In this document: one piece after another, positions 1,475 to 63,139 of the stretch | How the letters are laid out: each line of letters starts with the position of its first letter | Numbering within the stretch: the first letter of the stretch is position 1 | Origin: Chiloscyllium plagiosum | Lineage: Eukaryota | Length of the DNA stretch: 64,000 bases | Direction of reading: 5' to 3' | Assembly (NCBI RefSeq): GCF_004010195.1 | Contig: NC_057718.1 | Coordinates: 5,416,325 to 5,480,324, forward strand | The notes under the pieces: model-generated | Database searches by the model: none | Seen by the model: only the letters and a program-made list of their open reading frames with translations | What the model was told of the DNA's origin: nothing | Made by a program: the position numbers and the translations under genes

Positions 1475-1811
1475 GGATGTAGGTTTGCTCGCTGAGCTGG
1501 GAGGTTCATTTCCAGACATTTCATCACCCTACTAGGTAACATTTTCAGTGGGCCTCAGACGAAGCACTGCTGATAAGTCCTGCTTTCAATTTATATGTTT
1601 GGGTTTCTTTGGGTTGGTGATGTCATTTCCAACCCAAAGAAACCCAAATATATAAATTGAAAGCAGGACTTATTAGCACTACTTCATCTGAGGCCCACTG
1701 AAAATGTTACCTAGTAGGGTGATGAAACGTCTGGAAATGAACCTCCCAGCTCGGCGAGCAGACCTACATCCAGAACCTCAATCTGAGCTACAAATCTTCT
1801 CAAAACTCGCT
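1475..1811 (+). mobile_element. Penelope-like terminal element in fold-back form, with hammerhead-like motif
   Basis: ~144-bp inverted arms (1474-1617 / 1629-1772), 12-bp TSD aattctaaatat (1463-1474, 1812-1823), ctgaaaa..stem..gaaacgtc at 1698-1731. Confidence 0.8.
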
Positions 1812-2159
1812 AATTCTAAATATCAATTTCTATTTACATGCAGCCAAATCAAAAGCGAACTCAAACAGAGACTGCAGTTCTCCCCCTCAGTGCTAACTAA
1901 ATGGTGGCATTGGGACCAACAAATATTTTACATTCTGCAAGGTACCAGACCCATGTGTCATTGTGATTCTGGTTTGTAGCCCTAGTCGCAGATGCTCCAT
2001 CACGGCCCACATCATAGTTTGCGGCACAGGTGGCATTGTACCTGGCTTCACATCAGTCAGGGGGGTTACACAGTGCTGTCATAGTCACCTCTGTTCCCCC
2101 CCAGTAACCAGCCTACTAAGGCACCTGGACGCTCAAACAGTGCTCCAGGATCATTGCAT

Positions 2160-2420
2160 TCCCACAGTGGGGAAGGAGGTCATTCAGCCCATTAAGTCTG
2201 CAACAACCCTCCCAGACCTATCCCTACATAGCCTAACACTTCCCCCCTCCATTGGGGTTTTTAACCATGACTAGCCCAACCAACCTGCACATCTTTGAAC
2301 TGAGGGAGGACTCACACGCAGATACAGGGAGAGTGTGAAAACTCCAGACATACCGTCAGCTGACGGTGGAATTGAACCTGGGTTCCTGGTGCTGTGAGAC
2401 AGCAGTGCTGACTATTGGGT
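2160..2420 (-). mobile_element. HE1/V-SINE-type tRNA-derived SINE, decayed
   Basis: Reverse complement of cagcactgctgtctcacagcaccaggaacccaggttcaattcc head and aaagatgtgcaggtt body. Confidence 0.8.
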
Positions 2421-3305
2421 CACCAAATGTAGGAGCTGTTGCAGCGCCTCCTAAGGTACCAACTGAGTTCTGTTGGTTCTCCTGAGGTGCCAATATGCTA
2501 GCAGGCACAGAATGGCATGGCAGGAAAAGGAAAGACAAGAAATGCTTTGAGCAAGTAGGTAGTTACTCAGTGAGCAAGCACTAAGAGAACACGTGAGTAT
2601 CTGTGAGATAAAGGCTGGTCCCATGTGTGAACTTGATCTCTCTCTTTGCACGCATGGTATCCTTCCTGAAACTTTTCAGTGCTAGTTCCCATGCATCTCG
2701 CAATTTGATCTTTATTTATTCATGCATAGGATGTGGGCATCACTGCATGGGCTAGAATTTATTGCCATTTATTGAGGTGGTGTTGAGCTACGTTCTTGAA
2801 GCTCCACAGTCCATGTCTTGTAGGTAGATCCACATTGCTGTTAGGGATGAATTCCAGGATTTTGACCCAGCAACACTAAAGGAATGATGATGTATTTCCA
2901 AGTCAAGATGGTGAGAGGTTTGGAGGGGAACTGGTCGGCTGTGGTGTTCCCATATATCTGTAGGTCTTGTCCTTCCTGATGGAAGAGGTCATGGGTTTGA
3001 AAGATGTTCTCTAAGGATGTTTGGAGAATTTCTGCAGTGCATCTTGTAAATGGTACACTGCTGCTACTGAGCATTGACGATGAAAGGAGTGGATGTTTGT
3101 GGATGTGATGCCAATCAAGTGGCTGCTTTGTCCTGGATGGTGTTAAGCTTCTTGAGTGTTGTTGGAGCTGTGGATGTGGTGCCAATCAAGCGGCTGCTTT
3201 GTCCTGGATGGTGTTAAGCTTCTTGAGTGTTGTTGGAGCTGCCCCCATCCAGGCAAGTGGGGAGTATTCCATCATACTCTGAACTTGTGCTTTGTAGATG
3301 GTGGA

Positions 3306-3531
3306 GAAAGTGAGGTCTGCAGATGCTGGAGATCAAAGTTGAAACTTTATTGCTGGAACAGCACAGCAGGTCAGGCAGCATCCAGGGAACAGGAGATTCG
3401 ACGTTTCGGGCACAGGCCCTTCTTCAGGAATGAGAAGGGCCTGTGAAGAAGGGCCTGTGCCCGAAACGTCGAATCTCCTGTTCCCTGGATGCTGCCTGAC
3501 CTGCTGTGCTGTTCCAGCAATAAAGTTTCAA
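3306..3531 (-). mobile_element. Penelope-like fold-back element with perfect 93-bp inverted repeat and minimal hammerhead ribozyme
   Basis: Arms 3334-3426 / 3444-3536 are exact reverse complements; 16-bp TSD ctttgtagatggtgga (3290-3305, 3532-3547). Confidence 0.85.
3396..3431 (-). ncRNA. Minimal type-I hammerhead ribozyme motif (PLE-type)
   Basis: Minus strand AUUC-CUGAAGA-A-GGGC-CUGU-GCCC-GAAACGUC-GAAU: CUGANGA core, stem II, GAAA, palindromic ACGU stem III, 4-bp stem I. Confidence 0.75.
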
Positions 3532-4439
3532 CTTTGTAGATGGTGGACAGTCTTTGGGGAGTCAGGAGGTGAGTTACAAATCCTGAATGCACAATTCCTA
3601 TCCTCTGACCAATTCTGATAGACATTGTATTGATGTAGCTAGCCCAGTTCAATTTCTGAAAAATGACAATCCACAGGATGTTAACAGTGGGATAATCAGT
3701 GATGGCAATCAATGATGGCAGTGGCTAGATTCTCTTTTGTTGGAATTGATCATTGCCTGGCACTTGTGTGGTACAAATATTACTTGTCACTTGTCAGCCC
3801 AAGCCTGGATATTGTCCAGATTTTGTTGCATTTGAACATGGACTGCTTCAGTATCTGAGGAATTGCAAATAGTCCTAAACATTGTGCAATCATGGGTAAA
3901 CATCCCCATTTCTGACCTTATGATGGAGGGAAGGTTATTGATGAAGCAGTTGAAGATGATTGGGCCTAGGACACTGCCCTGAGGAACTCCAGCTGAGGTG
4001 ACTGTTGTCCAAAAATCACAACCATCTTCCTTTGTGGCAGGTGTGACTCTAACCTGTGGAGAGTTAGCCCCTTGATACTTATTGATTCCAGTCTTGCTAG
4101 GACTCCTTGATGCTACATTCAATCAAATGCAACTTCCTCAGTGGCCTGTAACTGAATTGAACAGATCCCATGATAGTTGTGAGGATAGTTGAAAAATGGC
4201 AAATGTTAGTGTCTATGGATGAGGAGCTTGTGCAGCTGGTGCTCAGGAATTACACCTTATTCAAAGTGAGAAGTCCTTCACCTGACAAGAGAGCAACCCT
4301 CTGAAAGCTTGTTATTTCAAATTAACTTGTGTCCACCCCAATACAGCCACATCATGCCTGGAAGTGTTGTATGGGCAAACACAACATGGAGGTTGTTCAG
4401 AGCAAGCACTGAGCTAAATAACTGCTTTCGTAGAGTCCT

Positions 4440-4775
4440 TGCAGTGCAGAAAGAGACTGCTCGGCCCACTGAACCTGCACCAATCCTCCAAAAGAAGGCA
4501 TCTCCCCCAAAACCGAGCCTTCCACCCTATCCCCCTGATCATGCATTTCCCATGGCTAATCCACCTAGTCTACACATCCTTGGACATGTTAGCACAGCTA
4601 ATCTACCTAACCTGCACATCTTCAAACCGTGGGAGGAAGCTAGAGCACCTGATGGAAACACATGCAGACACAGGGAGAATGTGCAAACTCCACACAGACA
4701 GTCGCCCGCAGCTGGAATTGAGCCAGGGTCCCTGAGAGACAACAGGGCTAACCACTAAGCCACTGTGCTGCCCAT
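4440..4775 (-). mobile_element. HE1/V-SINE-type SINE
   Basis: Reverse complement of gggcagcacagtggcttagtggttagc head and ctgtgtggagtttgcacattctccc body. Confidence 0.85.
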
Positions 4776-6183
4776 TTCTGAGACCTGCTTAGTCCAGCTC
4801 ATTAGATGCATTTGGCAGGCTAGCAGGATAAATATTAATGAGGAGAGTTGTACCATTATGCTTAATAATGTTTTAAAATGATTTTGAAATGTTTAACGAG
4901 CCACTTCAATGATAACCCACCTTGGCCAAGCACGAAGCTCATGACCCCACTTGGCGAAAGTATACAAGATGGAGTGAGTATTCCTGAGGCGGAGATAGAC
5001 CTCAATGAACTTCTCATTCGATTCTGCCGCAAAACTCCCCATTGGTCACACCACTCAGATCCCCTAAGATTTCATGTGTCATGATGATGTGATGATTTTG
5101 TTTGCTGTTTCACCACACATTACTCAAAACATTGATATATAGTTAAATTCAATCAACATTGATATATAGTTAAATTTCGACCCAGTAGGGGTCAAGTCTA
5201 AATTGATCTTAAAACGGAGCCAGGCATTTAATGTGAAGAAAGGGTTTGATGACCAGACTCAGAGAAATCGTTTCCATTTGTGGCTGAGTTCAGAACAAAG
5301 AGCACATCAATATATGAATCACTGATAGATCGAGTGATTAATTTGCAGCATCTATTTACACAGAGAGTGATGGACAATGTGAAACATGCTGCCACGTACA
5401 GTGACTGCAACACAAACCATTGGTTTAAAGATTAGTGGAGGAGAATGGGGTAGAGATAAATATAGATTAAGATGGGGAGAGATTGGGGAAGATAGGAATA
5501 TGGAGCAGCTGGGCTGCGTGCTGATTCAGTGGAAGGCTGTGCCAATGTTTGCCTCCATTATGCTGTCCAGTAGCCCACTCCACCCTGCATTGATCACTCC
5601 CTGATTGATGAAAGTTTAGTGCTGTATCGACCTTTCCACCACCAAGATTTAGCTGGAAGTCACATTCGTCTCATTTAATATCACCCACAACTCGAAGCAT
5701 AAGGGAGCTCAGAGAAGAGAACAACTCGTTCTGACCTTGATGGTGAATTAATGGAACAGAAATAGAACATTGGAACAAGGCACAAGATGTTTCATGCTCT
5801 CCTGAAGGACTAAGTGCCCTGTTATTACTGTATTGGATATATTGTTTGCGAACTAGATATGATGAATGGCTGTGTAATCCTTACTTGAAGGAAGAGATTA
5901 ATATCGATCTTCAATATTGTGTAGGCACTGGCATTACTCTGGGCGATGTTGTGGATGTTGATATGATGATCTTTGTATCCACAAAAGTGTATACTCTCTC
6001 GATTATGTAGAGTTAGGCTTACCTTTGGAGCTTGGCAAAATTGATGCAATAAAACTCAGAGCTCACTCTGAAATGATGGGCAAAGTTCTCTGCTCTCATT
6101 CATGGTGTGTCTAGTGGTGGCAAAGTGAAATAATTGCACAGAGACTGGTATCCCGTCACCAAGCCCCCCTTTATTTACAAGGA

Positions 6184-6815
6184 CAAAGTTAAAAATCACA
6201 CAACACCAGGTGATAGTCCAACAGGTTTATTTGGAAGCACTAGCTTTCAGAACACTGCTCCTTCGTCAGGTAGCTGTGGAACAGGGTCATAAGGCACAGA
6301 ATTTATAGCAAAAGATCACAGTGCCATGCAACTATAATGATATATTGAACAAAGCGAGATTGCTGTTGAATCTTTCATCTTTTAGCATGGGTTGCAGGTT
6401 TCAGTAAATCCCAGAACTTCTTTGAAGTCACATTGTCAAGATAACTTAATTTATATTTTAAAAAGTATAAGCCTATGAGAGGGTGTGTGCATGGGCATGG
6501 ATGTGGGTGTGGGGGAATGTGTGTGTGTCTGAGAGAGACAGTGTATATGAGAGAGGGTCTGTGTGAGTATGTAAGAGTGTGTGTGTATGTGCGTGTGTAT
6601 GTGAGTGAGTGTATAGTGTAGTGGGGTCACCTGTAGTGTGATATGAATCCAAGTTCTCAGCTGAGGCCATCCTCATGGGTACCAAACTGGACTATCAGCC
6701 TCTGCTTGGCCAGTCTGTGTTGTTGCATATCTGAAGTGCGCCTTTGAGGATGGTCAACCTAAAATCTGATGCCACATGTCCCTGACTGCTGAAGTGTTCC
6801 CCGACTGGCACCTCC
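6184..6815 (-). mobile_element. Penelope-like element 3' end (GIY-YIG C-terminal remnant, CA-rich tract, hammerhead motif)
   Basis: Minus translation PVGEHFSSQGHVASDFRLTIL...FGTHEDGLS; CUGACGA-AGGAGCAGUGUUCU-GAAAGCUA at 6241-6269. Confidence 0.75.
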
Positions 6816-6875
6816 ACTCATTTACTTGTGCACAGTCCACTACTGGTGAACATGAGATTCGAAATCCTTGGTTAA

Positions 6876-7423
6876 TTTTTTTTCTTTTTCTTTTTTTTTC
6901 TCTTTTTTTTCTTTTTTTTAAGGTAGGCAAACACCAGACCGGCCAGTGACAAGCAGTGCCCTTCTCAACAAAATGCAATGCAGGCTTGTTCTTTTCTATT
7001 TTTTAAAACAGTGAAGGACTCCTGTTTGTTTTTTTTAATAATATTAACCCCCACACTACCACCTAAGTGCGGTAGTGCTTATTTTTTCCCCAGCACCCAT
7101 GGTGTGTGTGCAGGTGTGAGACACAGTGAGAGACACAAAGTGCACAAATCTTTCTTCAATTTCCACCACCAGGAAGATAGGAAAACACCCGGGTGGCCAG
7201 TGACAAACACTGCCTTTCACATCAAAGGGCAGTGCTGTGTGATCAAAACAGTGAAGGGGAGGGTAGGGACTAAATCAAAATAGAGTTGGAGGGAGAAATA
7301 ATGCACTCCACTCCCTGCGGCGCCCACCTCTCCCTGAACAACTCCAGGGTGTTGGTCGACACCGCGTGCTTCTTCTCCAAGGACACCCGGGCCCTAACGT
7401 AACCGCGGAAGAGGGGCAGGCAA
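6876..7423 (-). mobile_element. 5'-truncated Tx1/L1-clade non-LTR retrotransposon with poly(A) tail and TSD
   Basis: ORF2 C-terminus CLPLFRGYVRARVSLEKKHAVSTNTLELFRERWAPQGVECIISPSNSILI* (7422-7270), poly-T 6876-6919, 14-bp TSD aaatccttggttaa (6862-6875, 7424-7437). Confidence 0.85.
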
Positions 7424-8654
7424 AAATCCTTGGTTAAATTGATCATCCAGGGCTCCCTGATTGGCCCAGATTAACAAGCACAGTCAAGGATCTTATTGTC
7501 AATAAGATCTACCTGGTTCCAATTACTATAGAGGGGCATGGAATTAGATAAGATTGTGTTGTACTTGAATCCCATTGCATTTGCACCTCCTCCTGAATTA
7601 CATTCTGGATCAAATAACACATGATTGACTTTTTTTTCCCTGCATCGGTCAGTCCAGTTGTGGACTCGGCAGCAGCTAAACCTTATGTGGGTCCCTTGAT
7701 CAAAGACAGTCAGTGCTGATCAGGGGATCAGATACCAGGATGAAGAGGGATCCAGATAGCCAAATTCTTGTCCTTGCAACCAACCTCCACCCTCCTTGAA
7801 CTACAACCCAACCCTGTCCGGTGAACAACCGCAGCCCCACTCGTGTGTTCCATACCCTTAGCCTGGGACACTCCCATAATCCTGTGCATCTGAGAGGGTA
7901 TTTTTCCTGAAGCAGCTATGATCTCTCCCTGATACCACGCCCAAGCACAAGGCCCGTCAGCCTCACATTGATCTGGCTTGGCAGGCATGACCTCTGGCCT
8001 TGGGGATGGGGGAATGGAGGGGGCCAGACCCATGGGGAAGTCCCAACAACTGTCTTGCCACTTCCTGGTTGGTGCATGATTCAGCAAGCTTTCCCATAAA
8101 GAGGGGAGTAGGGGGTCTTGACAAGACCCTCGATACCTCAATAAGATTCTGGCCATTAACTCTGTTTACCTCCACAGATGATTCCTGGCGTGTTGAGTAT
8201 TCCCAGGTTATTTTTGGTTTTAAGAACAGAGTTTGATTGTTGAAGCAGTGAATGACAAGCTCCAGGTATGAATGGAAGAAGGTCAGAGGCCCTACTGTGC
8301 AGCAGTGGTAGTGTCCTTACCCATGGAGCAGGAGCCCTCTTGTGCAGCAGTCCTTACCCATGGAGCAGGAGGCATATGTTCCTGCAATAATAAAAACAAT
8401 GCTGAACTGTTTGATCAGAAAAGTAGATTAAATTTAAAATGAAAAGACCCCGCAGTTCTTGAGTCTAACCTCTTTGATAATGCAGAATGAATATTGTTTT
8501 ATTCTGCTGATCACCAATTAGCACAGAACATCGCTGCTTCAATCAGATGTTAGTTGAAGATATGACAACATTATGAGAGCACTCATCACAAGTTTGTGCA
8601 GATACAGCCTGATCGAGATTCCCTCTTTATCTGAGACATCTGGTGAAATTGTAA

Positions 8655-9062
8655 GGAGAAGCTAGAAAAACTCGAGTTGTTTCTCTTGAGCAATGGAAGC
8701 TGAGGGGAGATTTGATAGAAGTCTATAGAATTATGAGATGAATAGATAGGATTGACAGTCAGAATCTTTTTTCCCAGCGATGAGATGTCTAAAACAAGTG
8801 GAGCATGCATTTAAGGGGAGAAAGGAAAGTTCAAAGATGATGGAAGGGGCAAGTTTTTATCGGAGAGCGGTAGGAGTCTGGAATATGCTGCCAGGGGTGG
8901 TAGTGGAGGCAAAATTGATAGGTGGACTTAAAGGACTCTTAGATAAACACATAAATATGCAAAACATGGAGAGATATGGACCAAGGACAGGCAGAAGGAA
9001 TTAGTTAAATTTAGCAAGTTCAGAGCAACATTGTGGGCTGTTCCTGTTCTGCACTGTTCTAT
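8655..9062 (+). mobile_element. CR1 LINE 3' fragment
   Basis: FSLEQWKLRGDLIEVY..., VGVWNMLPGVVVEA motifs, ctgttctat tail. Confidence 0.85.
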
Positions 9063-9094
9063 AAATAGATCATTCCTCATGGGTCTCCAGCGTA

Positions 9095-11464: not shown

Positions 11465-11887
11465 ATAGAACATAGAACATTACAGCGCAATACAGGCCCT
11501 TCAGTCCTCAATGTTGCGCTGACCTATGGAACCAATCTGAAGCCTTTCCATCCTACACTATTCTGTTTTCATCCATATATCTATCCAATGACCATTTAAA
11601 TGTCCTTAAAGTTGGCGAGTCTACTACTGTTGCAGGCAGTGTGTTCCATGCCCCTACTACTCTCTGAGTAAAGAAACTACCTCTGACATCTGTCCTATAT
11701 CTATCACCCCTCAGTTTAAAGCTATGTCCCCTCGTGCTAGCCATCATCATCTGAGGAAAAAGGCTCGCACTGTCCACCCTATCTAACCCTCTGATCATCT
11801 GATATGTCTCAATTAAATCACCTCTCGACCTTCTTTTCTTGAGTGAAAACAACCTCAAGTCCCTCAGCCTTTCCTCATAAGACCTAT
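11465..11887 (-). mobile_element. CR1 LINE 3' fragment
   Basis: ORF 11553-11858 (RGDLIETY...RVVGAWNTLP); catagaacatagaacat tail. Confidence 0.92.
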
Positions 11888-15774: not shown

Positions 15775-16015
15775 ATTCCAATCACTTAATTCGAACTGTC
15801 AACATCCTTTCTGCCCTAGCACTTCATCCCCTGCCCCGTTCCCCCATTGCATAAATGCTGCCCCCCCCTCCACACTTCCCAACAGCTCTGAGGAAGAGTC
15901 ATCTAGACTCGAACCATTAGCTTGCTTGCTTTCCATGGATGCTGCCTGACCCGCTATGATCTCCAGCACTTTTTCTTTTCAGTACAGATTCTCGCATCTG
16001 CAGTAATTTGCTCAC
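15775..16015 (+). mobile_element. Penelope-like terminal fragment with decayed hammerhead motif
   Basis: ctgagga-agagtc-atcta-gactc-gaaccatt (15888-15918) followed by gatgctgcctgac...gcatctgcag terminus. Confidence 0.6.
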
Positions 16016-16424
16016 ACATTGATTTGTATTTGATATGTATTGACTAAATAGGAGAGAATGTAAGCAAAGGGAATGTCATTGGGGGACTGGGACCTACCTC
16101 CTGGTTTCTTAATGGCTACATTGTGTGATCACTTTGTATAGGACTGATCAGTATCATGTAAGAAGGATAAAGAGAAAACATTCATTTCTATGACACCTTA
16201 TAGGAATTAAGACAACAAAACATTTAATCAATTACCTTTGTCTCAATGAGGCTTCCTAAGTAATATTGCTTGGAAGACTCAGACTTTGAAGGATTGTGGA
16301 AAAAAGGATTTATTTCAAGTCTGGAGCCACTTCTTTAAATTAGGTCATTGAAAGAGATTTCTAGAAAAATCACATGACTTGTGAGAACTGCTTGCTTTGC
16401 TGCAGACCCTGCTGAGGCTATTTT

Positions 16425-16760
16425 GAAGAGGTAAAAACAATGACTGCAGATGCTGGAAACCAGATTATGGATCAGTGGTGCTGGAAGAGCACAGCAATTC
16501 AGGCAGCATCCGAGGACAGGCAAAATCGACGTTTCGGGCAAAAGCCCTTCATCAGGAATAAAGGCAGAGAGCCTGAAGCGTGGAGAGATAAGCTAGAGGA
16601 GGGTGGGGGTGGGGAGGAAAACTTCTTCAGGAAGGTGAGGCGTTCTTCCTCCAGGCGTCTGGTGGTGAGGGAGCGGCGGTGGAGGAGGCCCAGCACCTCC
16701 ATATCCTCGGCAGAGTGGGAGGGGGAGTTGAAATGTTGAGCCACTGGGCGATTGGGTCTG
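16425..16760 (-). mobile_element. Penelope-like element 3' end with GIY-YIG endonuclease remnant and intact hammerhead motif
   Basis: RPVAQHFNSPSHSAEDMEVLGLLHRRSLTTRRLEEERL; minus CUGAUGA-AGGGCUUUUGCCC-GAAACGUC at 16528-16555. Confidence 0.85.
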
Positions 16761-17299
16761 ACTTGTAAGATTCTTGGTTTATTTGCTTCAGTTGGAGAGA
16801 AGCCACCTAAGAATAAGCTGAGTTGGAGGGAAGCCTGTAAAGCACAAGTTGTCCAGCTGATCTCACACATTTTTGAAAAGAAAACCCTCCACATCAAATC
16901 TGGGTGAAACCTACTTGTTGTTCAGAAAGAGTGAATGAAAAAAAATCTTAAGATTGTACTTCTTGAGCCAGCTGTGTCTGCAAGACTTCAGAGACAAACA
17001 TACATGATTAATGACTTGATCACGCCTGCCAAAATGTCAAAGCAATGTTCTTCAGGATATAAAACCAAAGAACTTGTGAAAGTTGGAAGTCCAAACCAAA
17101 AGCAGAAAATGTTGGAGACACTCAGCAGGTCTTGCAGCATCTGTAGAATGAAAGGAGAGTTAAAGTTTTGGGTCTAATGACACTTCTTCTGAACTCTATT
17201 CAAGAATAACCATTGGATAATGTGTTTTTTATTTTCAGAAAGCCAAAAAACATTTTCGTTTGTTTGGAGAGAAAAGGGTGGGGTGGGGGGAAGAGGGAG

Positions 17300-19082: not shown

Positions 19083-19390
19083 TCATTGGGCAACATAGAT
19101 TTGTCTAAGTCAGAAGCTTATGAGTTCAAGTCCCATTCCAGAGATTTATCACCAATATCTAGTTGACAGTGTAGTGCTGAGGAAAGCTGCATTGTTGGGG
19201 GTGCTGACTTATAGATGAGATCTTAAACTAAGCCCTGTCTGTCCACTCAGTTAGACATAAAAGATCCAAGGATACCCCTCAAGATACAGCATATGGTTGC
19301 TTTCTCATGTCCTGTCCAATGTTTATCAAATAGATAATCAAATCATGGTCATTAATTCTAGTGCTCAGATTGGCTCCTGTATTTCCTATA
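19083..19390 (+). mobile_element. Deu-domain SINE (SacSINE1-like)
   Basis: gagttcaagtcccattccagaga B-box region; gtgctgaggaaagctgcattgttgggggtgc...gatgagatcttaaac...aaaagatcc core. Confidence 0.75.
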
Positions 19391-19391
19391 G

Positions 19392-19606
19392 GCAAAAGTG
19401 AGGACTGCAGATGCTGGAAACCAGAGTTTAGATTAGAGTGGTGCTGGAAAAGCACAGCAGGTCAGGCAGCATCCTAGGAGCAGGAAAATCAATGTTTCAG
19501 GCAAAAGTCCTTCATCAGGAGCGGCTTTTGCCCAAAACATCAATTTTCCTGCTCCTCGGATGCTGCCTGACCTGCTGTGCTTTTCCAGCACCACTCTAAT
19601 CTAAAC
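19392..19606 (-). mobile_element. Penelope-like fold-back element, hammerhead decayed by CpG loss
   Basis: Inverted arms ~19424-19509 / ~19523-19608; imperfect TSD ctcctgtatttcctat / ctcctgaacttcctat. Confidence 0.8.
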
Positions 19607-20664: not shown

Positions 20665-20935
20665 AAGAGTGAGGACTGCAGATGCTGGAAACCAGCGTTT
20701 AGATCAGAGTGGTGCTGGAAAAGTATAGCAGGTCAGACAGCATCCGAGGAGCAGGAAAATCGACGTTTTAGGCAAAAGACCTTCATCAAAAATAGAGGCA
20801 GGGTGCCTCCAGGGTGGAGAGATAAATAAGAGGGGGGTGGGGCTGGGGAGAAGGTAGTAAAGAGTAGACTCAGTGAGATTCTTGTGGAGAGAGGAGGAGA
20901 ACTTCTTCAAAGTAGGCATCCTTGCAAGAGGATTT
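20665..20935 (-). mobile_element. Penelope-like terminal fragment
   Basis: gtgaggactgcagatgctgg...cgacgttttaggcaaaagaccttcatc; same family as 16425-16760. Confidence 0.8.
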
Positions 20936-36105: not shown

Positions 36106-36959
36106 ACAGGGGTCCAGGTAGATTCTTTTCCTTGCGGGTCGAGATAGCTGAACAAGAAGAGCTGACCATTGCCACAGGAATAATGATAGAACATTCCAGA
36201 AAGCACTGCAAAGAAAATTCTGATTTGTGATAGTTTATCCTGGAATTGAAATCCAAAGAAGAAAAAGGCTGTGCAACGAATCCTGTGTTAATGCATCTAT
36301 AGGAAGTATTGTAATTATTTTCTATTTGTAAATCGCAAGAAAATTGTGTTAGCAACTAAAGCAGAGGTATCCACCGAGTTTCAAAAATAATTACCCACCC
36401 TTCTACAATAGAAAACACTTCCATTCAAAATGTAATTTGCTTTATTTATGATTTGTGCCATGTTTCTTTCCTTCTCAGATCTTTAATTGACATATTTTGC
36501 TGCCAAACCGTATTTCTCACCATTGAGAGACTGAAATGTCAAATTTAATCGTAACATTGAGGTTGACTAAGAGCACTTCTCTCTTGCCCACGTGGTGCAG
36601 CTAAGTGCTTTTAGAAACACCTTAACTTGACCGTAATGATCATATAATACAGAAATGGGTCTTATTACCAGCCTGGAACTTGAAGACTCCAAAAGAAAAA
36701 CAGGCAGTGAACTGCCAGCACAGCAAAAGAGAGTTTTAAAAGTATTAAATCTGGAGTTAACATTTCAGAGCACAGCCTGAAAGGTCACAAACTTGAAATG
36801 TTGATTCTATTCCTCTCTTCACAGATGCTGTTATTTGAATATTTCCAGCATTTTCTCCTTTCATTTCAGATCTCCAGCATCCGCAGTGTTCTGATTTTGC
36901 ATTATGAATGAAATAAATGTGTGAATGCCCACATTTAATCTCAGAGGGCCAAAGTTAAG

Positions 36960-39460: not shown

Positions 39461-39824
39461 TGAGTTTTGCTGAAAAAGATTTTTTTTTAAACTTTTCATC
39501 TTCCTGTCATCAGGACAATTCACAAGGAGCACCAAAATAAAGAGAAAATAGCATTTTGACTGCATGAGCAGTGATTGCTAATTGGTTTGATGAGGAGTCA
39601 CCAGATTTGAAATATTAACTTTGCTTTCTCTCCATGGATGCTGCCAGACTTGCTGAGTTTCTCCAGCAATTTCTGTTCTTCTGTCAATTGGTTAATAATT
39701 TGAGTCTGACTGGTAGAAGAATTGTAATGGGAAACACAGCAGTTAATGCTGATGTAAGTTACTCACCGGGCTTTGTGTAAATTTTAAACATAGCAAATTG
39801 ACTCTGATTGGCACACTGCCACTA

Positions 39825-42799: not shown

Positions 42800-43620
42800 T
42801 TAGGAATCATCCCAGAAAGCCCATGGGTGGAATTGGCCTGTTCACTCACATAGAAACTAGTCACTTTATTATTGTTGACAACGTGGAAATTCTAAAAATA
42901 CAGTTCAGTCATTATGACATTTCAGACATTCTGATGAGTTCAGACACTCTGATCTGTGTCAATAGCCCTCAATTCACAAGTGAAGAATCCAACCATGTCA
43001 GTAAAGTTTGGGGAATTCAACATTGTATATCATCTCTACACTAAAGAACCAAAAGTAAATGCAGTAGAGTCTTGGGCAAGGCAGTCCTTGAGTGGAGAAA
43101 CCTCTACTGAAGACATGGAAAGTAGTTTAACAAAAGACTCACATCACATCCCACCTAAACTATTCTTTCAATAATGAAAAGAATTACTGAAACCATAAAT
43201 AATAACTAGCTTGAGCGGCATGATCAAAGTGAAACGATGGAAAGTCAGACTTCAGTTTGATAAAACTACCAAGTGATTACCAGGGCTGAACACTGATAAA
43301 TCAGGCAGAGGAGAAAGTGAGGACTGCAGATGCTGGAGATCAGAGCTGAAAATGTGTTGCTGGAAAAGCGCAGCAGGCCAGGCAGGTCAGCCCTTTCCTG
43401 AAGAAGGGCTCATGCCCGAAACGTCGATTCTCCAGCTCCTTGGATGCTGCTTGACCTGCTGCGCTTTTCCAGCAACACATTTTCAGCCCTAAATCAGGCA
43501 GAGGGCAAATGTTCAATGTTATCAATTTGAGTCAGCCACAAGACAACTTAGGGCCGTCGTTGACCAAATATCACCTTAATTGTGTGCCATCAACAAGAAC
43601 AGCCAGATATGCTGTCTGTA
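42800..43620 (+). mobile_element. Decayed Ty3/Gypsy integrase region, interrupted by a PLE hairpin
   Basis: GIGLFT..FIIVD...FSHYDISDILMS...NSPQFTSEE...WGIQHCISSLH resembles IN core GIPD..SDNGPQF.S.EF..F...W...H..SSP. Confidence 0.7.
43312..43489. mobile_element. Penelope-like fold-back element with intact + strand hammerhead motif
   Basis: 15-bp TSD taaatcaggcagagg (43297-43311, 43490-43504); CUGAAGA-AGGGCUCAUGCCC-GAAACGUC 43398-43425. Confidence 0.85.
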
Positions 43621-43689
43621 GTGATTGGAACCAGGGCCTGTTGGATCTCATTGAATATTAGATCCTTGATTGGGATTGTTAACCAGGGA

Positions 43690-43803
43690 TTAGATCAGAG
43701 TGGTGCTGGAAAAGCACAGCAGGTCAGGCAGCATCCAAGGAACAGGAAAATTGACATTTTGGGCAAAAGCCCTTCATCAGGAATAGAGGCAGGAAGTTTC
43801 AGG
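43690..43803 (-). mobile_element. Penelope-like terminal fragment running into the assembly gap
   Basis: gtggtgctggaaaagcacagc...gggcaaaagcccttcatcagg. Confidence 0.8.
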
Positions 43804-45079: not shown

Positions 45080-45615
45080 ATTCATTCACAGGATACAGGC
45101 ATCACTGGCTGAGCCAGTGTTTATTGCCCAGAGACAGTTAAGAGCCAACCACATTACTGTGGGTCTGGAGTCACATGTAGGCCAGACCAGGTAAGGATAG
45201 CAGTTCCCTTCTGTAAAGAGCACTACTGAACCAGGTGGGCTTTTACATCAATTGACAATGGATTCATGATCATCAGACTCTTAATTCCAGATATTTATTA
45301 AATTCACAATCCACCATCTGCTGTGGCAGTATTCAAACCCAGGTTCCCTAGAACATTACCTGGGTCTCTGGGTTAACGGTGAGAGAGATAGGTGGATGAA
45401 GGTGAGGGAGAAGGTGATCAGCTACCTTCCCCCCAACCCCACCCCCCTCCCATTCATCTCTCAGCCCCGGCCCACAGGTCTCATTCCTGATGAAGGGCTT
45501 ATGCCCGAAACGTCAATTCTCCTGCTCCTTGGATGCTGCCTGACCTGCTGTGCTTTCCCAGAAACACACTCTTGTCTCTTAGCGACAATACCATGAGACC
45601 CAGGTCTCCCCTGGA
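45080..45615 (-). mobile_element. tRNA-derived SINE (family of 29575) interrupted by a PLE fragment (~45380-45575) with an intact hammerhead motif
   Basis: SINE core 45130-45230; CUGAUGA-AGGGCUUAUGCCC-GAAACGUC at 45487-45514 on +. Confidence 0.8.
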
Positions 45616-46051: not shown

Positions 46052-46269
46052 AAGAAAGTCAGGAGTGTGGTGCTGGAAAAGCACAGCAGGTCAGGCAGCA
46101 TCCAAGGAGCAGGAGAATTGATGTTTCAGGCAAGAGCCCATTTCCTGATGAAGGGCTCTTGCCCAAAATGTCAATTCTCCTGCTCCTCGGATGCTGCCTG
46201 ACCTGCTGTACTTTTCCAGCAACACACTCTCGACTCTGATCTCCAGCATCTGCAGCCTTCAGTTTCTCC
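46052..46269 (+). mobile_element. Penelope-like fold-back element inserted in a CR1 fragment
   Basis: Inverted arms; TSD tggtcttat (46043-46051, 46270-46278); decayed hammerhead ctgatgaagggctcttgcccaaaatgtc. Confidence 0.8.
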
Positions 46270-46422
46270 TGGTCTTATGAGCAATGTTGGACAACTTAGC
46301 CTTGCATCCACTCAACCTTTCTGTTCCCTCTTTGCAAAATTCAACCCTGAAAACTCAAGCTCAGTGGCCCTAATCCCTCTTTCCAAATTTGGCTTGACTT
46401 CCTTACTGCTTCCCTACTGCCT

Positions 46423-52908: not shown

Positions 52909-54174
52909 TGGGGCCAACCCAGTCAACGTTTCCTCTTCAGACAAATTCATCCTAGGAATTGGCCTCATGAACCAGCTAAAACACCTAGGTGACCCATTGA
53001 AGACCCCTTTCACACTTACTAGCAGTGATCTGAGTGGTTGGGGTTGGGAGCTCTCTCTCTCCCATCTCCCACACTGCACTCCTAGTCAGATGAGCAGGAC
53101 ACCCCACTTCCTGCAGATTGGAAGGCCAGACTGCTCCCAAACTATCTGTTCCTTCCAGGCACATTCCATAAAGTGGCCATTTATTCCTTGGGGTGCTGCT
53201 GAGACCACTGATTTGTCGCCTCTCGCGATTGACCACTGTTTCCTACATGTGGGCAACTGACCCTTTGAAACTCATAAACTCTGCTGGGAATTGCACAGAT
53301 GGTTCTGGCTTTCTAGCCTGTCACCGGAACCCCACCAATAGAATAACATATAACCCCATTGACTCCATTTTTCTCTCTCCACGGATGCAGCCAGAGCTGC
53401 TGAGCACTTCCTGCATTTTCCATTTTTCCATTAATCGGTGACGCCCCTGGTTCTCTCTTGAGTGGTTACAAGAGATGACACTATTTCCAAAACGCCCGTG
53501 ACCTCTACTCAGTATCCAGATCAATGTTTATCCCCAATCAAAATTGGCCAAAATAAGAATATCCATTTTCCATAACACAGGAAGCTTGCTTGGAGCAGTC
53601 TGGCTCTCAGGTTTCCTATATGATTAAAATTACTGTGCTTCAAAAATACCCTATCACCTGTGAAGCATTTTGGATACCAAAAAGTTGTGAAAGGTATTAT
53701 ATAAATGTAATTTATTTCTTTCCGCAAACGGAAAATTACACAGAGTGAAGTTTCAACACAAAACATTTTGGACAAAAAATAACAAGGTAAAATAAATTGA
53801 ACAAAATAATGTTCAGTCATTCAGTCAGAGTGACCTTTGTCAAAACTGTGAGGTGCCTCTGAGTCTGAGCTGTTGCCTTCCTGCTGCTAATTCTTGAGCC
53901 ATGTCTCTAGCCCTTGCAGACATTATACATAGACCTTTTCTTACTGTGAGAGACAAGGGGCAGCTTGACATTATCCGCCTCCTCTCTTTTCAGGCAATTT
54001 CTTTTCGCAGCACGCAACCAGAACTTGTTGCCTGTTGGCTGATACTGTGTGAATGGTCAGACCCCATATGGAATGATGACTTCAATCTTGGCACCACATC
54101 CTTCGAGGAAAACTAACCAGAGAGTAGATTAAAAAGGTGATTTTCTTTGGACATTTCACATAAACTAACCTTCA

Positions 54175-56330: not shown

Positions 56331-56344
56331 ACCACTTTAAAGTG

Positions 56345-56802
56345 GTGATGTGGAGGTGCTGGTGTTGGACTGAGGGGGTCAGAGTCAGAAGCCACATGAC
56401 TCCAGGTTACAGGTTTACTTAAAGTCACAAGCTTACAGAGCGCTGCCCCTTCATCAGGTGAAGGAGCAGTGCCCTGAAAGCTTGGAATTCAAATAAACCT
56501 TATGTCAACAGGTTATAATCCAACAAGTTTATTTGAAATCTGCATCTCCTTTCTAACTGATTAAAGATTTAATGGGAGGGAGTCAGCCATTTTCAGTTTG
56601 TCCAATACATTCACATCAGTTGTATGATCCTTTGATCTTTCACTTATAAATTCTGAGTCTGTTGCCTCCTCTCTCACTACATTTGATGAAGGAGCAACAC
56701 TCTGAAAGCTAGTGTTTCCTAATGAACTTGTTTGACTATAACCTAGTGTTGTGTGATTTTTGACCTTGAGTGACCCAGTCTAACACCAGCCCCTCCACAT
56801 CA
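56345..56802. mobile_element. Penelope-like terminal element with inverted ends and decayed hammerhead motifs (GAAAGCU family)
   Basis: gatgtggaggtgctggtgttggactg / cagtctaacaccagcccctccacatc inverted termini; tgatgaaggagcaacactctgaaagcta at ~56684-56711. Confidence 0.7.
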
Positions 56803-57277
56803 AATGAACCTGTTGGGCTACAATTGGCCATTGAAGTGAAGCAGGGAAAAGAAACACATGTGGCTGGACTGGTGCTCAAAGGGTTAAGAGTGTTGAACAG
56901 TTTTCTATTTGCTCCTCCATTCCCAGAATATACCGATCAGAGTGACTGTGTTGCCAACAAAATCTCACACAATTGTCCTTTAAATCACACCAGAGTGCAA
57001 ATAGGATATTCAAGCTGATAGGATGGAGCTTAGCATGAGAATTAATAGTAAACAGGCATTGGGTTACAGGCACATCATAGTTCAGTTCCATATTCAGGGA
57101 CAGTGCTTCCATGTACAGCTGTGTGTGCAGGTTTAATTGAGGATCTGTCCAGGTTACAGTATGTTCTGTTCTTTTTATGGGTGCATTTTGGCCAGGTCTC
57201 CAGAGGCAGGAGAATTGATAGCCTCAGGGACAAAGATGGCAAAATGAACCTGACACTTTAGAAAGTAGTGAAAGGTC

Positions 57278-58578: not shown

Positions 58579-61500
58579 AGAACATAGAACATAGTACATA
58601 GAAAATTACAGCACAGAACAGGCCCTTTGGCCGACAATGTTGTGCCCGAGGATTAATCTGAATGTAATATAAAATAACCTTACCTATGCACCTTTCAATT
58701 TGCTGCTGTCCATGTGCATGTCCAGCAGGCGCTTAAATATCCTGAATGATGCTGCTTCCACCACCACCGCTGGCAGCGCATTCCATGCATTCACAACTCT
58801 CTGCAAAAAGAACCTACCTCTGACGTCTCCTCTATACCTTCCTCCTAATATATTCAAACTATGACCCCTCGTCCCAATCAATCCTGCCCTGGGGAAAAGT
58901 CTCTGGCTATTGACTCTATCCATGCCTCTTTTTACCTTGTACGCCTTGATCAGATCACCTCTCTTCCTCCTTCTCTCCAGAAAGAAAAGTCTAAGCTTAG
59001 TCAACCTCTCTTCCTACGACAAGCTCTCCAGTCCAGGCAGCATCCTGGTAAACCTTCTTTGCACCCTCTCCCAAGCCTCTGTATCTTTCCTATAGTAGGG
59101 TGACCAGAACTGGACACAATATTCCAAGTGTGGTCTCACCAGGGACTTGTAGAGCTGCAGCAAAACCTAGTGGGTCTTAAACTCGATACCCCTGTTAATG
59201 AAAGCCAAAACACCATATGCTTTCTTAACAATCCTATCCATTTTGAGGGATCTATGCACTTGAACACCAAGATCCCTCTGTTCCTCCACACTGCCAAGAA
59301 TCCTGTCTTTAATTCTATATTCAGCATTCGAGTTCGACCTTCCAAAATGCATCACTTCACATTTATTCAGGTTGAACTCCATCTGCCATTTCTCAGCCCA
59401 GCTCTGCATTCTGTCTATGTCGTGCTGCAGCCTGCAGTAGCCCTCTATACTGTCAACGATATCTCCAACCTTTGTGTCATCTGCAAATTTAACCCACCCC
59501 TCAACCTCCTTCTCCAAGTCATTTATAAAAACTACAAAGAGCAGAGGCCCAAGAACAGAGGCCTGTGGGAGACCACTCAACACTGACCTCCAGGCAGAAT
59601 ACTTTCCATCTACAACCACTCTCTGCCTTTAGTCAGCCAACCAATTCTGAATCCAGATAGCCAAATCTCCCTGTATCCCATACTTCCTGACTTTATGAAT
59701 CAGCCTACCATGGGGAACCTTATCAAATGCCTTGCTGAAGTCCACATACACCACATCCACTGCTTGACCTTCGTCGACCTGTCTTGTCACCTCCTCGAAG
59801 AACTCAATAAGATTAGTTAGGCACGACCTGCCCCTCACACAGCCTTGCTGACCATCTTTAATAGTGCTATGCTTTTCCAAATAGTCATAACTCCTATCCC
59901 TCAGAATTTTTTCCAAAACCTTGCTGACCACAGACATAAGACTGACTGGTCTGTAATTGGCAAAGATTTCCCTATTCCCCTTCTTGAAAAGAGGAACAAC
60001 ATTCACCTCCTTCCAATCCTCCGGTATGACTCCTGTGGAGAGTGAGGAAGCAAAGATCTTCACCAGGGGCTTAGCAACCTCCTTTCTCACTTCCCGGAGC
60101 AAACTAGGATAAATCTGATCTGGGCCTGGGGAGTTATCAATGTTAATGTTTGCCAAAATTTCCAGCATATCAAATTCATCAATCTTAATCTGTTCAAACC
60201 GATTTCTCAGCTCCTCAAAGTTCTCATTCACAACAAGGTCCCTTTCCTTAGTGAAAACTGAGGCAAAAAACTCATTTAGGGGCTTCCTCAATCTGCTGAG
60301 ACTCCACGCACAAGTTCCCTCTGCTCTCCCTGATCAGCCCTATCTTCTCCCTGATCTTTCTCTTAATCTTCATGTACGAGTAAAATGCCTTTGGGTTCTC
60401 CCTAATCCTTCCTGCCAAACCTTGCTCGTGCCTCCTCCTGGCTCTCCTCAGTCCATTTCTGAGCTCCTTTATAGCAAGCCTGTAATCCTCTGAACCTATG
60501 CTAGATCCTTGCTTCCTCTACCTTACGTAAGCTGCCTTCTTCCTTTTAAAAAGCTCCTCTGTTCTCGTCATCCAAAGCTCCATAATCTTACCCCTTTTTA
60601 CCTGTCTCAGAGGAACAAATTCGTGCATCACTCGAAACAACTGCTCCTTAAACAATCTCTACATGTCTGCTGTGTCCTTTCTGTGGAACAATTGCTCCCA
60701 GTCTTTACTTCTGAACTCCTGTCTGATAATGTCATAATTTCATTTTCCCCAATTAAATATCTTCCCTCGGTAATTGCTCCTTTCCCTCTCCAAAACTATG
60801 GTAAATGTGAGGCAGTTGTGATCACTGTCACCAATGTGTTCGCCCACCATGAGATCTGACATCTGTCCTGGCTCATTGCCGAGCACCAAATCCAAAATGG
60901 TCTCTCCCCTCATTGGCCTGTCTACATACTGAGTAAGGAAACCCTCCTGAATACACCTGACAAAAACAGCTCCATCCAAACCATCTGCACTAAGAATGTT
61001 CCAGTTGATATTGGGAAAGTTGAAGTCACCCATAACAACAACCCTGCTACATCTGCATTTTCCAAAACCTGCCGGCTTATTAGTTCTTCAATCTCTCTAC
61101 TGCTATTCGCAGGTCTGTAAAAAACCCCAAAGAGGTGGCTGCTCCTTTGCTGTTCCTAACTTCCACCCATATTGACTCGGTAGGCAAACCTTCCTCAACG
61201 ACCTTCATTTCTGTAGCTGTGATGCACTCTCTGATTAGCAATGCTACACTCCCTCCTCTTTTTCCACTCTCCCTGTTCTTTTTAAATGTTCTAAACCCTG
61301 GAACATCTAGCAACCATTCCTGCCTATGTGAAACCCACGTCTCCGTTATGGCCAACATCGTAGCCCCGAGTACTGATCCATGATCTAAGTTCTTTACTCT
61401 TATTTCTGACACTCCTTGCGTTAAAGCAGACACACTTTAACCGATCCTTTGTTTCATTGCATGAGAAACCTTCCCAATAGATTCACTACATCCTGTCACT

Positions 61501-61913
61501 GCCCCATCTACAACTAACCCCTTCTCAGACATGTAGCTCTGATTCCCACCCATGCCCCGCCAAATTAGTTTAAACCCTCCTGAACCACACGAGCAAGTCT
61601 CCCACCCAGGACATTTGTACCCCTCCAGTTCAGGTGCAACCTGTCCTTCATGTACAGATCCCACCTTCCCCAGAAGGTATTCCACTGGTCTAGGTATCTG
61701 AAGCCCCCCCCTCCTGCACCAGCCTCGCAGCCACGTGTTAAGCTGCATTCGCTGACTGTTCCTCACCTCACTATCTCGTGGCACTGGTAGCAAACCTGAG
61801 ATCATTTCTCTACTCGTCCTGCTCTTCAGCTTCCAACGTAGCTCTCTGTAGTCACTTTTCAGATCCTTAATCCCTTTCCTGGCTATATTATTGGTGCCAA
61901 TATGTACCACAAT
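58579..61913 (-). mobile_element. Long CR1 LINE: 3' half of ORF1 (SGNH/GDSL esterase domain) plus ORF2 (APE endonuclease and RT) and (ttctatg)n tail; inactivated
   Basis: ORF1 IVVHIGTNNI...ISGLLPVPR; EN AITETW, MGDFNFPNINW, LDLVLGN, SDHN; RT YRPVSL, DFSKAFDKVPH, PQASVLGP, KFADD; ORF2 split across several frames. Confidence 0.95.
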
Positions 61914-61944
61914 ATTTGCTCGGTATTTCCAGCATTTTCTGCTT

Positions 61945-62140
61945 TTTTTATTCATTCAGGGGATGTGGGACATTAATGACTGAGTCAGTATTTATTGCCC
62001 ATACATAGGTGCCCTTGATAAGGTAGTGATGAGCTGCCGTATATGGTGTAGGGGCACCCAGAGTTCCGTCAGGTATGGAATTCCTGAATTTTGACTCAGA
62101 GACACTGAAGGTGACAACTGAGAGGTCTGCTTTGTCTTGG
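61945..62140 (-). mobile_element. CR1-group LINE 3' end followed by a short PLE fold-back remnant (62145-62260)
   Basis: ttttttattcattcagggg...tttattgcccat; aaagtgaggattgcagacgctggag...gatgctgcctgac. Confidence 0.7.
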
Positions 62141-63139
62141 ATGGCAGGTGAAAGTGAGGATTGCAGACGCTGGAGATCAGAATCAAGATTAGACTGGTGC
62201 GATAGGGATGCTCCTCGGATGCTGCCTGACTTGCTGTGCTTTTCCAGCACCACTCCAATCCCTTGAACTGAACTAAACTAAATCTTGCTTAGAAAGAACC
62301 TAAAACTGGCTTCTGATTTTAAGTTTCAATTCTTCTTACCTAAAACTCTGATGTTTTCTGAATTGAACCAAACTTAACACAAAACTAACAGCTTAATATG
62401 TTTACATGGCCCATCATAACCACCAAATTATAAACATCTTAATTATTTAACACTCCGAGGATTGTTCTATGTCCTTAAAGATAGTCACATTCCTTCTTGG
62501 AATGGGTGCATTTATATCACTGTTCCAGAATTTCTTTCTGACCTTATTTTTTTTAAAAGACAAACCTCCATGTCACTAACCCACATTCACATGTCTCCCT
62601 TATTATGACAATCCACATTCCAAAAAATGATAATAATTCAGTTTATACACCATTTATTACAGCTGATTGTTGCATCAAGAGTTGCTAATAATTGTGAATC
62701 TAAGGTATATGAGGTTACTGCTAACCTCTAGAATGAGGCTATCAATGTTGCTGGAAGATAGACTCCGTACATTCTGAGTCATTACTTTTGTCTTCCTGAA
62801 GGTGAATGTCAGTGCAAACTGCTTGCAAGCTCAGGAGAACCAGTCTACAAGCTGCTAAAGTGATATGGGATATAAACACTGTACCATCAGCAAACAGTGA
62901 CTCACAGACACTGAATGTCTAGGGCAGTATGCTGTTTGGTCGTGGTGAGCTGCATTGCTCAGCTGCACAGGTTTCTCGGAGCTCTGCTCTACAGTTGACC
63001 CTCTTGCTTGAGTTGCCAAGACTGACTGATAACAGCACACAGAAAATATGGCAAAGTGAATTGGCACCATGATGCAGGTCTGCTTTACCCCACTCCTGTT
63101 CTTGAAATCTTCCAATGACACTCTATTGTAATTGATGGA

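Follow-up and report, generated by a model that had tools for sequence, protein, structure and literature searches.

Cleavage of the minimal hammerhead ribozymes of Penelope-like elements (PLEs) as dimers has reportedly been described by Lunse et al. in RNA Biol. In the survey of Cervera and De la Pena 2014 (PMC4209133), such minimal PLE hammerheads showed no activity as monomers and weak activity as dimers, and four of their features lie outside the descriptor used in that survey, namely families related by compensatory changes, a base between positions 9 and 10.1, a G10.1-C11.1 pair and a palindrome at 15.2-16.2. For the element PAc of Anolis, hammerhead cleavage needs the element's protein and is dispensable for insertion in vitro, the optional tail of the insertions has been traced to two internal start sites of the reverse transcriptase (RT), and both target strands are cleaved and extended (PMC11167929). 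Craig et al. 2021 (PMC8557442) give as hallmarks of PLE insertion heavy 5′ truncation, an inverted 5′-truncated partner and a tail of 30-40 bp that is often present on one side only, and they treat a Cys linker as characteristic of the Neptune and Nematis clades. An internal TATA-less promoter of initiator (Inr) and downstream promoter element (DPE) type is known from the pseudo-long terminal repeat (pLTR) of Drosophila Penelope (Schostak 2008, PMC2377424), and retrozymes of the type without long terminal repeats (non-LTR retrozymes) have been reported in one cartilaginous fish (Li et al. 2026, 10.64898/2026.07.22.740005). We have analysed a stretch of 64,000 nt from Chiloscyllium plagiosum (contig NC_057718.1, positions 5,416,325 to 5,480,324; referred to as the window), in which an initial annotation had noted a population of short, hammerhead-bearing, Penelope-derived elements. 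The units found in this window are very probably inserted copies of the 3′-terminal part of PLEs that bear an endonuclease, each family carrying a minimal type-I hammerhead. The kind of element, the dimer model and the insertion architecture have all been published already; new here are shark-lineage families at very high copy number, a lead on the start of a short RNA, and genomic support for an uncut template.

Penelope-like origin of the units

Aligned in one orientation, all copies have the stretch between ribozyme and 3′ end in common and differ upstream of it. In subfamily F1a (families are described in the next section), the upstream part is an untranslated region (UTR) of about 200 nt, preceded by the tail of an open reading frame (ORF; window 16631-16759), and in longer F1a copies elsewhere this ORF reads ...C-X4-C-X2-C...IYCIRCSRCGLLYIGET...RFREH.... 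The link between these termini and a GIY-YIG ORF, whose absence the initial annotation had named as a ground for refutation, was found: the domain (PF01541) lies upstream of the same hammerhead, with 24.7 bits in the ORF of locus L010 and 22.2 bits in that of L018 (cut-off 22.6). A database search with the F1a ORF, limited to longer proteins, gave 16 longer relatives, 13 of them with PF00078; database relatives at 42-47% identity combine RVT_1 with GIY-YIG. The two closest named relatives are from carpet sharks, and a re-scan of one relative of 909 aa (P0007) placed RVT_1 at 417-581 and GIY-YIG at 810-843. RVT_1 and GIY-YIG within about 900 aa is the canonical layout of endonuclease-bearing PLEs, and the Cys linker of the F1a ORF suggests membership of the Neptune clade. 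That most copies would lack coding capacity was correctly anticipated, since coding sequence is kept in one of about 20 window copies; tblastn of the window with the ORF tail of the PLE recovered a single PLE coding fragment, and its remaining matches were due to a segment from the C-terminal part of a long interspersed nuclear element (LINE) within the L010 frame.

The hallmarks of PLE insertion, an optional tail, inverted truncated partners and target-site duplications (TSDs), are present here. TSDs in the window measure 16 bp, 15 bp and possibly 9 bp, and duplications of 8-12 bp were seen by eye in many fetched loci. The 3′ ends of arms with 78% identity or more are of two kinds, separated by about 34 nt (48 long and 42 short, with three cut arms). 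Window and fetched loci together hold 22 head-to-head inverted pairs, of which 16 combine a long with a short arm, three are long+long, one is short+short and two include a cut arm; at least two of the three long+long calls look by eye like over-extended alignments. Leaving aside the pairs that include a cut arm, 16/20 are long+short, an excess over the half that would be expected (binomial P ~0.006). No head-to-tail tandem ribozyme units occur in the window, and inspection by eye of the first 100 family-1 matches listed on contig 1 revealed no same-strand neighbours less than 776 bp apart; four opposite-strand pairs within 340 bp are among the same matches. From published PLE biochemistry, the RT of the element would start copying at two internal RNA sites, which would produce the optional tail. 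The Penelope origin proposed for at least three families is thus supported by the ORF link to GIY-YIG, the TSDs, the inverted partners and the optional tail taken together.

A fraction of 0.15-0.33 of the sampled words of window 16300-16900 was also found in read runs labelled as three other organisms (A, C and D), and for this reason the F1a family or a close relative may be common to related species.

Families, fold and copy number of the hammerhead

Both window strands were scanned with a regular expression for CTGANGA followed by GAAA within 55 nt. This gave 15 sites, nine of which have no hairpin between the boxes and represent chance; the six with a hairpin lie at 3427(-), 16555(-), 43398(+), 45487(+), 19518(-) and 6269(-). 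Four exact 28-mers of the form CTGANGA-A-GGGC-N4-GCCC-GAAACGTC, which in RNA is the family-1 (F1) motif CUGANGA-A-GGGC-N4-GCCC-GAAACGUC, are present at 3400-3427(-), 16528-16555(-), 43398-43425(+) and 45487-45514(+), the four places where intact copies had been described, and the predicted cut after the C at 43425 and 45514 indeed falls on the H17 position. Beside these, the window holds one weakened copy (19518), one copy of the GAAAGCU family and about ten decayed ones. The decayed F1 relatives that had been placed near 19500, 20770, 43760 and 46150 were located at 19491-19518(-), ~20790(-), ~43785(-) and ~46142(+). The GAAAGCU family, here F2, is likewise present at the places given for it (6241-6269(-), ~4282 and ~56460/56690); the copy at 6269(-), which reads CTGACGA-A-GGAGC..-GAAAGCT-A, is the only one with an intact core, and those at ~4282(+), ~56472(-) and ~56690(+) are decayed. 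Decay of the hammerheads is mostly of CpG type, for example from cccGAAACGtc to cccAAAATGtc, and this, taken with a genome size of 3.56 Gb, is indicative of a methylated vertebrate genome. Of two sites singled out as distinct variants, that at 15888 is real, with stem II GAGUC/GACUC and a core changed to GAAC, whereas site 1698 was rejected as a hammerhead, since its boxes do not flank a stem II and neither blastn against the family tails nor the covariance model gave a match. A blastn census with representative tails, in which tail-only fragments are included, put the number of insertion units in the 64 kb at about 20, which belong to at least three families and exceed the dozen or so elements first reported. 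The families seen are F1 (subfamilies a, b and c), F2 and F3/F3′, and a single-copy F4 lies outside the window.

In the whole assembly the exact motifs number 87,506 for family 1, 18,482 for family 2, 355 for family 3 and nine for the GAGUC/GACUC variant, and the reversed-pattern control gave 0 in each case, so that the family-specific counts are far beyond chance. The window had been called densely populated, and the motifs are there; their density, however, is ordinary for this genome, because the four exact family-1 motifs seen in 63.5 kb stand against 1.56 expected from the genome count (Poisson P ~0.07).

The order of parts is the same throughout: 5′ strand of helix I, CUGANGA, a bulged A, a helix II of 4-5 bp, GAAA, a 4-nt palindrome, the cut-site base and the 3′ strand of helix I, after which a tail of ~65 or 100 nt runs up to one of the two alternative 3′ ends. 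In the window, the core boxes C3-U4-G5-A6-N7-G8-A9 and G12-A13-A14, the A15.1/U16.1 pair and H17 are all present in the four exact F1 copies and in one F2 copy, and the core boxes are kept in 72/72 distinct motif sequences from window and fetched loci, a set that was selected by these boxes. An A is bulged between A9 and 10.1 in F1, F2, F3, F3′ and F4, and the 10.1-11.1 pair is G-C in 25/26 aligned sequences and A-U in the single F4 copy. As the initial annotation had it, a palindrome takes the place of helix III, ACGU in F1, F3 and F3′ and AGCU in F2. The families differ in their helices. Helix I is AUUC/GAAU in F1c, AUUC/GAUU with one U.U mismatch in F1a and F1b, CAC/GUG in F2, AGUU/AACU in F3 and AAGUU/GACUU in F4, and helix II is GGGC/GCCC in all three F1 subfamilies, GGAGC/GCUCC in F2 (read by eye), GGGUC/GACCC in F3, GAGUC/GACUC in F3′ and AGGU/ACCU in F4. 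The F4 copy, at L026:510-552(-), combines its A-U pair at 10.1-11.1 and 5-bp helix I with a helix III decayed to AUGU.

Covariation of stems I and II across families, the lack of which had also been named as refuting, was examined in an alignment of 26 sequences of F1, F3 and F4 with core-anchored pairs, F2 standing outside it and being read by eye. In this alignment 88% of the cells are paired, against 6.7-55% with partners slid, and the covariation score of 0.251 compares with 0.150 for shuffled alignments, 0/500 shuffles reaching it. Changes on both sides are found in 4/8 pairs overall, two of four in helix II (100% paired) and two of four in helix I (76% paired). Since only a handful of lineages contribute, the covariation of helices I and II between families appears supportive rather than strong. 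A covariance model built from F1, F3 and F4 (R1), which is a family model and not a general detector, gave 11 window sites at E <0.001, three of them its own training rows, and the match at 16520-16563 is identical to training row L013.

The predicted minimum free energy fold of an F1c monomer beginning at -4 is exactly helix I plus helix II, and a competing hairpin is preferred in the predicted monomer folds of F1a and of the 45487 copy. Folding also predicts a long-range helix of 9 bp in the tails of F1 and F3, in which (C/G)GAUGCUG just after helix I pairs with CAGCAUCUG inside the optional tail (3300-3431(-), 16429-16559(-), 46138-46270(+) and nine further loci). It encloses a UGCUG/CAGCA hairpin and is nearly invariant, so that it offers no covariation. 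On the strength of the folding model, this helix may be the structure at which the RT enters, and it could be formed by long-tailed copies only.

The ribozyme edge as a boundary and the cut site

Whether short copies share fixed boundaries had been put forward as a check, and a shared 5′ boundary was found at the edge of the ribozyme. An F1-independent sample was drawn from the window and from loci centred on F2 or F3; its 50 BLAST rows, less two duplicates and nine cross-matches of central F3 copies, leave 39 arms, of which 18 begin between -8 and +7 of C3, 10 further upstream and 11 further downstream. Of 30 consecutive F1b/c loci classified by eye, 11 pass from unrelated flank into the element 0-5 nt ahead of C3, 13 have an inverted arm attached at the ribozyme edge and six extend into the UTR. 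The same boundary was seen by eye in 8/12 F3 and 4/13 F2 copies, and 100 contigs of DNA run X15 diverge at window 16559, that is, at -4. Short copies thus share fixed boundaries, and the data lean to discrete units over random truncations. That about half of the arms start within a few bases of the 5′ edge of the ribozyme suggests a discrete short RNA, and perhaps a transcription start. The consensus of initiator elements is YYANWYY, and the native sequences from -6 to +1 in F1a, F1b/c and F3 (TCATTCC, TTATTCC and TCAGTTC) fit it. A fixed 5′ boundary at the edge of the ribozyme is not mentioned in the portions consulted of PMC4209133, PMC8557442, PMC11167929, PMC6765202 and the 2026 preprint, and literature searches did not turn one up; it may nevertheless be in print.

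One explanation of this boundary, which we put forward tentatively, is that the short units of ~95-130 bp are full-length cDNAs of a discrete short RNA beginning 0-5 nt before C3. In its simplest form, transcription would start at the initiator-like TCA(+1)TTC or TCA(+1)GTT; if the promoter lay within the unit, as it does in Drosophila Penelope, the unit would exploit the PLE machinery as a self-sufficient parasite resembling a short interspersed nuclear element (SINE), and the hammerhead would be the first structure to appear in its RNA. The pile-up of 5′ ends in the 39-arm sample, in the F1b/c loci, in F3 and F2 copies and in the X15 contigs argues for such an RNA, as do the initiator matches and the precedent of the internal Penelope promoter (PMC2377424). 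Several points stand against it: single-cell polyA reads, from a library ill-suited to the purpose, show no pile of RNA starts or ends, junctions fixed by TSDs scatter from -4 to 0, nothing initiator-like is found in F2, the ends of BLAST alignments are imprecise, and subfamilies with short copies have long copies too (L073, L060). The same pattern could moreover be given by an RT stop at the folded ribozyme or by microhomology in junction repair. The more specific proposal, that these units are complete copies of a short RNA whose initiator-like start lies 4 nt ahead of the hammerhead and that they combine internal promoter, ribozyme and RT entry site, we regard as rather doubtful. If it were true, helix I would sit at the very first bases of the transcript, cleavage would remove a capped leader of 32 nt, and a self-propagating, SINE-like PLE parasite would account for roughly half of well over 100,000 genome copies.

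The initial annotation had expected potential self-cleavage sites every few kb, and this part of it is not supported. The window copies are solitary or inverted, published minimal hammerheads cut poorly and require dimers or the element's protein, and neither 5′ ends nor reads mark the cut site. In the source element the ribozyme would cut after H17 only through pairing of the palindromes (ACGU/AGCU) of two copies or with help from a protein, and the scattered solitary and inverted copies in the window are most likely inert by-products. Many of them have lost the core through CpG decay, and a read-through transcript of an inverted pair would, according to the folding model, trap the motif within a hairpin of about -197 kcal/mol (-197.5 kcal/mol predicted for 3306-3536). 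RNA reads on window 16300-16900 revealed no place where molecules begin or end (872 reads from the single-cell polyA run X19, an unsuited library); they lie on both strands and cover the repeat part only, and run X20 gave none. Insertions are a record of the template RNA, and their genomic 5′ ends avoid the cut site. The rarity of 5′ ends there supports an uncut template, in agreement with the in-vitro report that uncut RNA was inserted. One F1a copy (L022:454-497(-)) ends 2 nt past the predicted cut site, with GAAACGTC-GA followed by unrelated sequence; it is the sole case in 20 F1a motif copies, and a 3′ deletion is an equally possible origin of this ending.

An uncut template could also mean that the hammerhead-like module has been kept for a non-catalytic role, as a signal for binding or folding of RT and endonuclease or as part of a promoter. 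The distribution of arm starts agrees with this, since only 2/39 lie no more than 3 nt from the cut site (+28), compared with the 18 at the ribozyme 5′ edge, and so do the reports that insertion in vitro is normal in ribozyme-dead mutants, that in Anolis the cut site coincides with no read ends (PMC11167929) and that PLE clades without a hammerhead proliferate well (PMC8557442). Yet the invariant positions are exactly those of the catalytic core, helices I and II covary as the ribozyme fold predicts, cleavage is on record for minimal PLE hammerheads in dimeric form or in the presence of protein (PMC4209133, PMC11167929), and an uncut template is compatible with cleavage at another step, so that we consider a purely non-catalytic role unlikely. 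It is very improbable that the palindromic copies are DNA transposons akin to miniature inverted-repeat transposable elements (MITEs), or microRNA-type hairpin genes, in which the hammerhead string is an accident: inverted arms flanked by TSDs, the very stable predicted hairpin of 3306-3536 and Rfam microRNA precursor matches at 3395-3476, 46095-46196 and 56419-56492 would favour this, but the matches are all far below gathering scores, the arms are unequal (long+short in 16/22 pairs) where equal terminal inverted repeats would be expected, TSD length varies from ~8 to 16 bp, and single arms share the same 3′ ends and run into the GIY-YIG ORF, which together contradict it.

The reading of the units as PLE termini with minimal hammerheads has its own difficulties. 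The RT of this genome's elements is unreadable, with N runs at the position of the element body in 10/10 loci around long copies (internal and 1.6-2.5 kb in length in 8/10, L019-L028), and the two full-length copies with visible 5′ ends (L021 and L028) have no upstream pLTR. The covariation is drawn from only four or five lineages, helix I is just 3 bp in F2, and it has the U.U mismatch in F1a and F1b. An Rfam scan of the window returned nothing that reached the gathering scores, and relaxing the limit to an E of 10 did not bring up a hammerhead family either; the hammerhead models expect a helix III, which is absent from the minimal variant. R1 finds 0/13 F2 hammerheads in 11 F2 loci, and the claim of a shared fold for F2 therefore rests on reading and not on the model. 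The two arm starts at the cut site, so few among 39, also count on this side. As to the full-length copies, L021 and L028 start at the same base near the ATG and L024 has a forward partial copy upstream, these being among few readable full-length loci. In 3/4 plus-strand loci the N runs end ~31-33 nt before the last 43 codons.

For annotation, the PLE reading implies that a large share of the short palindromic or ribozyme-like repeats of this genome are PLE tails, and not microRNA hairpins, MITEs or free-standing ribozyme genes. For PLE research, tens of thousands of natural insertions constitute a record of the template RNA. The pile-up at the 5′ edge in three sequence-distinct families points to a defined RNA start, and it makes the role of the PLE hammerhead testable, as leader removal versus unit-length processing.

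Window inventory and comparison with known systems

Units identified in the window, with the state of their hammerheads and the evidence for each (positions are those of the window)
Unit	Position	Strand	Hammerhead, arms and flanks	Score or source
F3-like tail-only fragment	834..914	-		blastn
F1c head-to-head inverted pair	3306..3531	both	long arm 3306-3431(-), short arm 3444-3531(+) without C3 (lost at junction); intact 28-mer 3400-3427, helix I strands 3428-3431 and 3396-3399; TSD 16 bp, CTTTGTAGATGGTGGA, at 3290-3305 and 3532-3547	63.6 + 36.5 bits (covariance model)
Decayed F2 hammerhead and tail start	4270..4330	+	ctgacaagagagcaaccctctgaaagctt	read by eye, missed by blastn
F2 copy with ~110 nt of upstream UTR	6183..6380	-	hammerhead 6241-6269, core intact, stem II weakened to G.U pairs, helix III AGCU	77% identity over 203 nt
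Tail-only fragment	8156-8221	+
F3′-type copy beginning at hammerhead	15887..16010	+	stem II GAGUC/GACUC, GAAA changed to GAAC	21.3 bits, E 4e-4
F1a 5′-truncated copy	16429..16762	-	intact hammerhead 16528-16555, long tail to 16429; ORF tail 16631-16759 (last 43 aa, GIY-YIG endonuclease region), then ~75-nt UTR remnant	64.4 bits
Decayed F3 copy	17066..17193	-	cagaagaagtgtcattagacccaaaacttt and tail	22.9 bits
F1 inverted pair	19389..19595	both	long arm (-), short arm (+); hammerhead 19491-19518(-), boxes intact, stem II weakened, helix III non-palindromic (ACAU)
Decayed F1a copy with ~87 nt of UTR	20668..20877	-	C3 changed to U, GAAA to AAAA	29.1 bits
Tail-only fragment	32880-32990	+
Old F3-like copy	36779..36887	+	hammerhead decayed	blastn
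Old F3′-like copy	39588..39685	+	uugaugaggagucaccagauuugaaauauu
F1b inverted pair	43312..43489	both	(-) arm 43312-43385 long-tailed, cut before ribozyme; (+) arm 43395-43489 with intact hammerhead 43398-43425 and short 3′ end; TSD 15 bp, TAAATCAGGCAGAGG, at 43297-43311 and 43490-43504	56.8 bits
F1 copy	43681..43792	-	CpG-decayed hammerhead (cccaaaatgtc); adjoins 500-N run 43804-44303	49.9 bits
F1 copy with ~63 nt of UTR	45421..45579	+	intact hammerhead 45487-45514, short 3′ end	61.5 bits
F1 inverted pair	46066..46270	both	short arm (-), long arm (+); hammerhead ~46142-46169(+) CpG-decayed; possible 9-bp TSD at 46043-46051 and 46270-46278	43 bits
Tail-only fragment	49399-49470	-
Tail-only fragment	53364-53427	+
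F2 head-to-head pair	56346-56472(-) and 56616-56803(+)	both	both hammerheads decayed (GUAAGCU; UUGAUGA)
F1 inverted fragment	62150..62254	both	tail only, without ribozyme	blastn

The N run beside the (-) copy at 43681-43792 is exactly 500 N long and starts ~12 nt upstream of the ribozyme of that copy. Other repeats in the window are of different kinds. A near-perfect palindrome of ~105 nt at 1571-1675, unrelated to the PLE tails, has the look of a MITE-type hairpin repeat and matches the precursor model of plant MIR5565 on both strands (63.4 and 61.8 bits, gathering score 80). A decayed LINE, which is not a PLE, occupies 58684-61955(-), with Exo_endo_phos_2 and RVT_1 spread over several frames; about a dozen fragments of the LINE C-terminal segment are scattered through the window (11622-11873, 39989-40216 and 14168-14395, for example), and an RVT_1 fragment lies at 3787-4122(-). 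Beside the PLE copy of L028, an open frame of 456 aa (248-1615(+) of that locus) appears by eye to be a retrovirus-type pol fragment from the RNase H/integrase region.

The closest described counterparts of these units are the minimal hammerheads of metazoan PLEs (PMC4209133), with which they share the core boxes, the unpaired base between 9 and 10.1, the G10.1-C11.1 pair, a short helix I and a palindrome in place of helix III; all four of the features that are independent of the published descriptor were found here. As in those PLEs, there are many families per genome related by compensatory changes, and most copies are solitary, with some on opposite strands 30-700 bp apart. Helix II is shorter here, however, at 4-5 bp against 7-8 bp in Schistosoma, and the copy number is far above the 4,000-9,000 given for coelacanth and Xenopus. 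With the endonuclease-bearing PLEs of the Neptune and Penelope-Poseidon clades, including PAc of Anolis (PMC11167929, PMC8557442), the elements share a C-terminal GIY-YIG domain and the C-X4-C-X2-C linker as well as heavy 5′ truncation, the inverted 5′-truncated partner, the optional tail of 30-40 bp, TSDs and a ribozyme in the terminal non-coding region. The tandem arrangement pLTR-ORF-pLTR of such elements was not seen among the few full-length loci that can be read. The position of the ribozyme also differs from that in PAc, where it overlaps the start of the ORF and lies downstream of the RT start sites (PMC11167929). Here it is found ~200 nt after the stop codon and just 65-100 nt upstream of the 3′ ends, which is why every 3′ fragment carries it. 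Animal non-LTR retrozymes (PMC7229834; 10.64898/2026.07.22.740005) are similar in being non-coding, in carrying a type-I hammerhead and in their relation to PLE terminal regions, but they form head-to-tail tandem arrays that give circular RNAs, whereas no same-strand pair closer than 776 bp is among the first 100 matches listed here. Lastly, Sm-alpha and Sj-alpha of schistosomes (PMC6765202) resemble the short units as dispersed, non-coding retroposons in which a promoter, putative in our case, closely precedes a type-I hammerhead; they differ in having a promoter of their own and a canonical hammerhead, where the shark units carry the minimal form.

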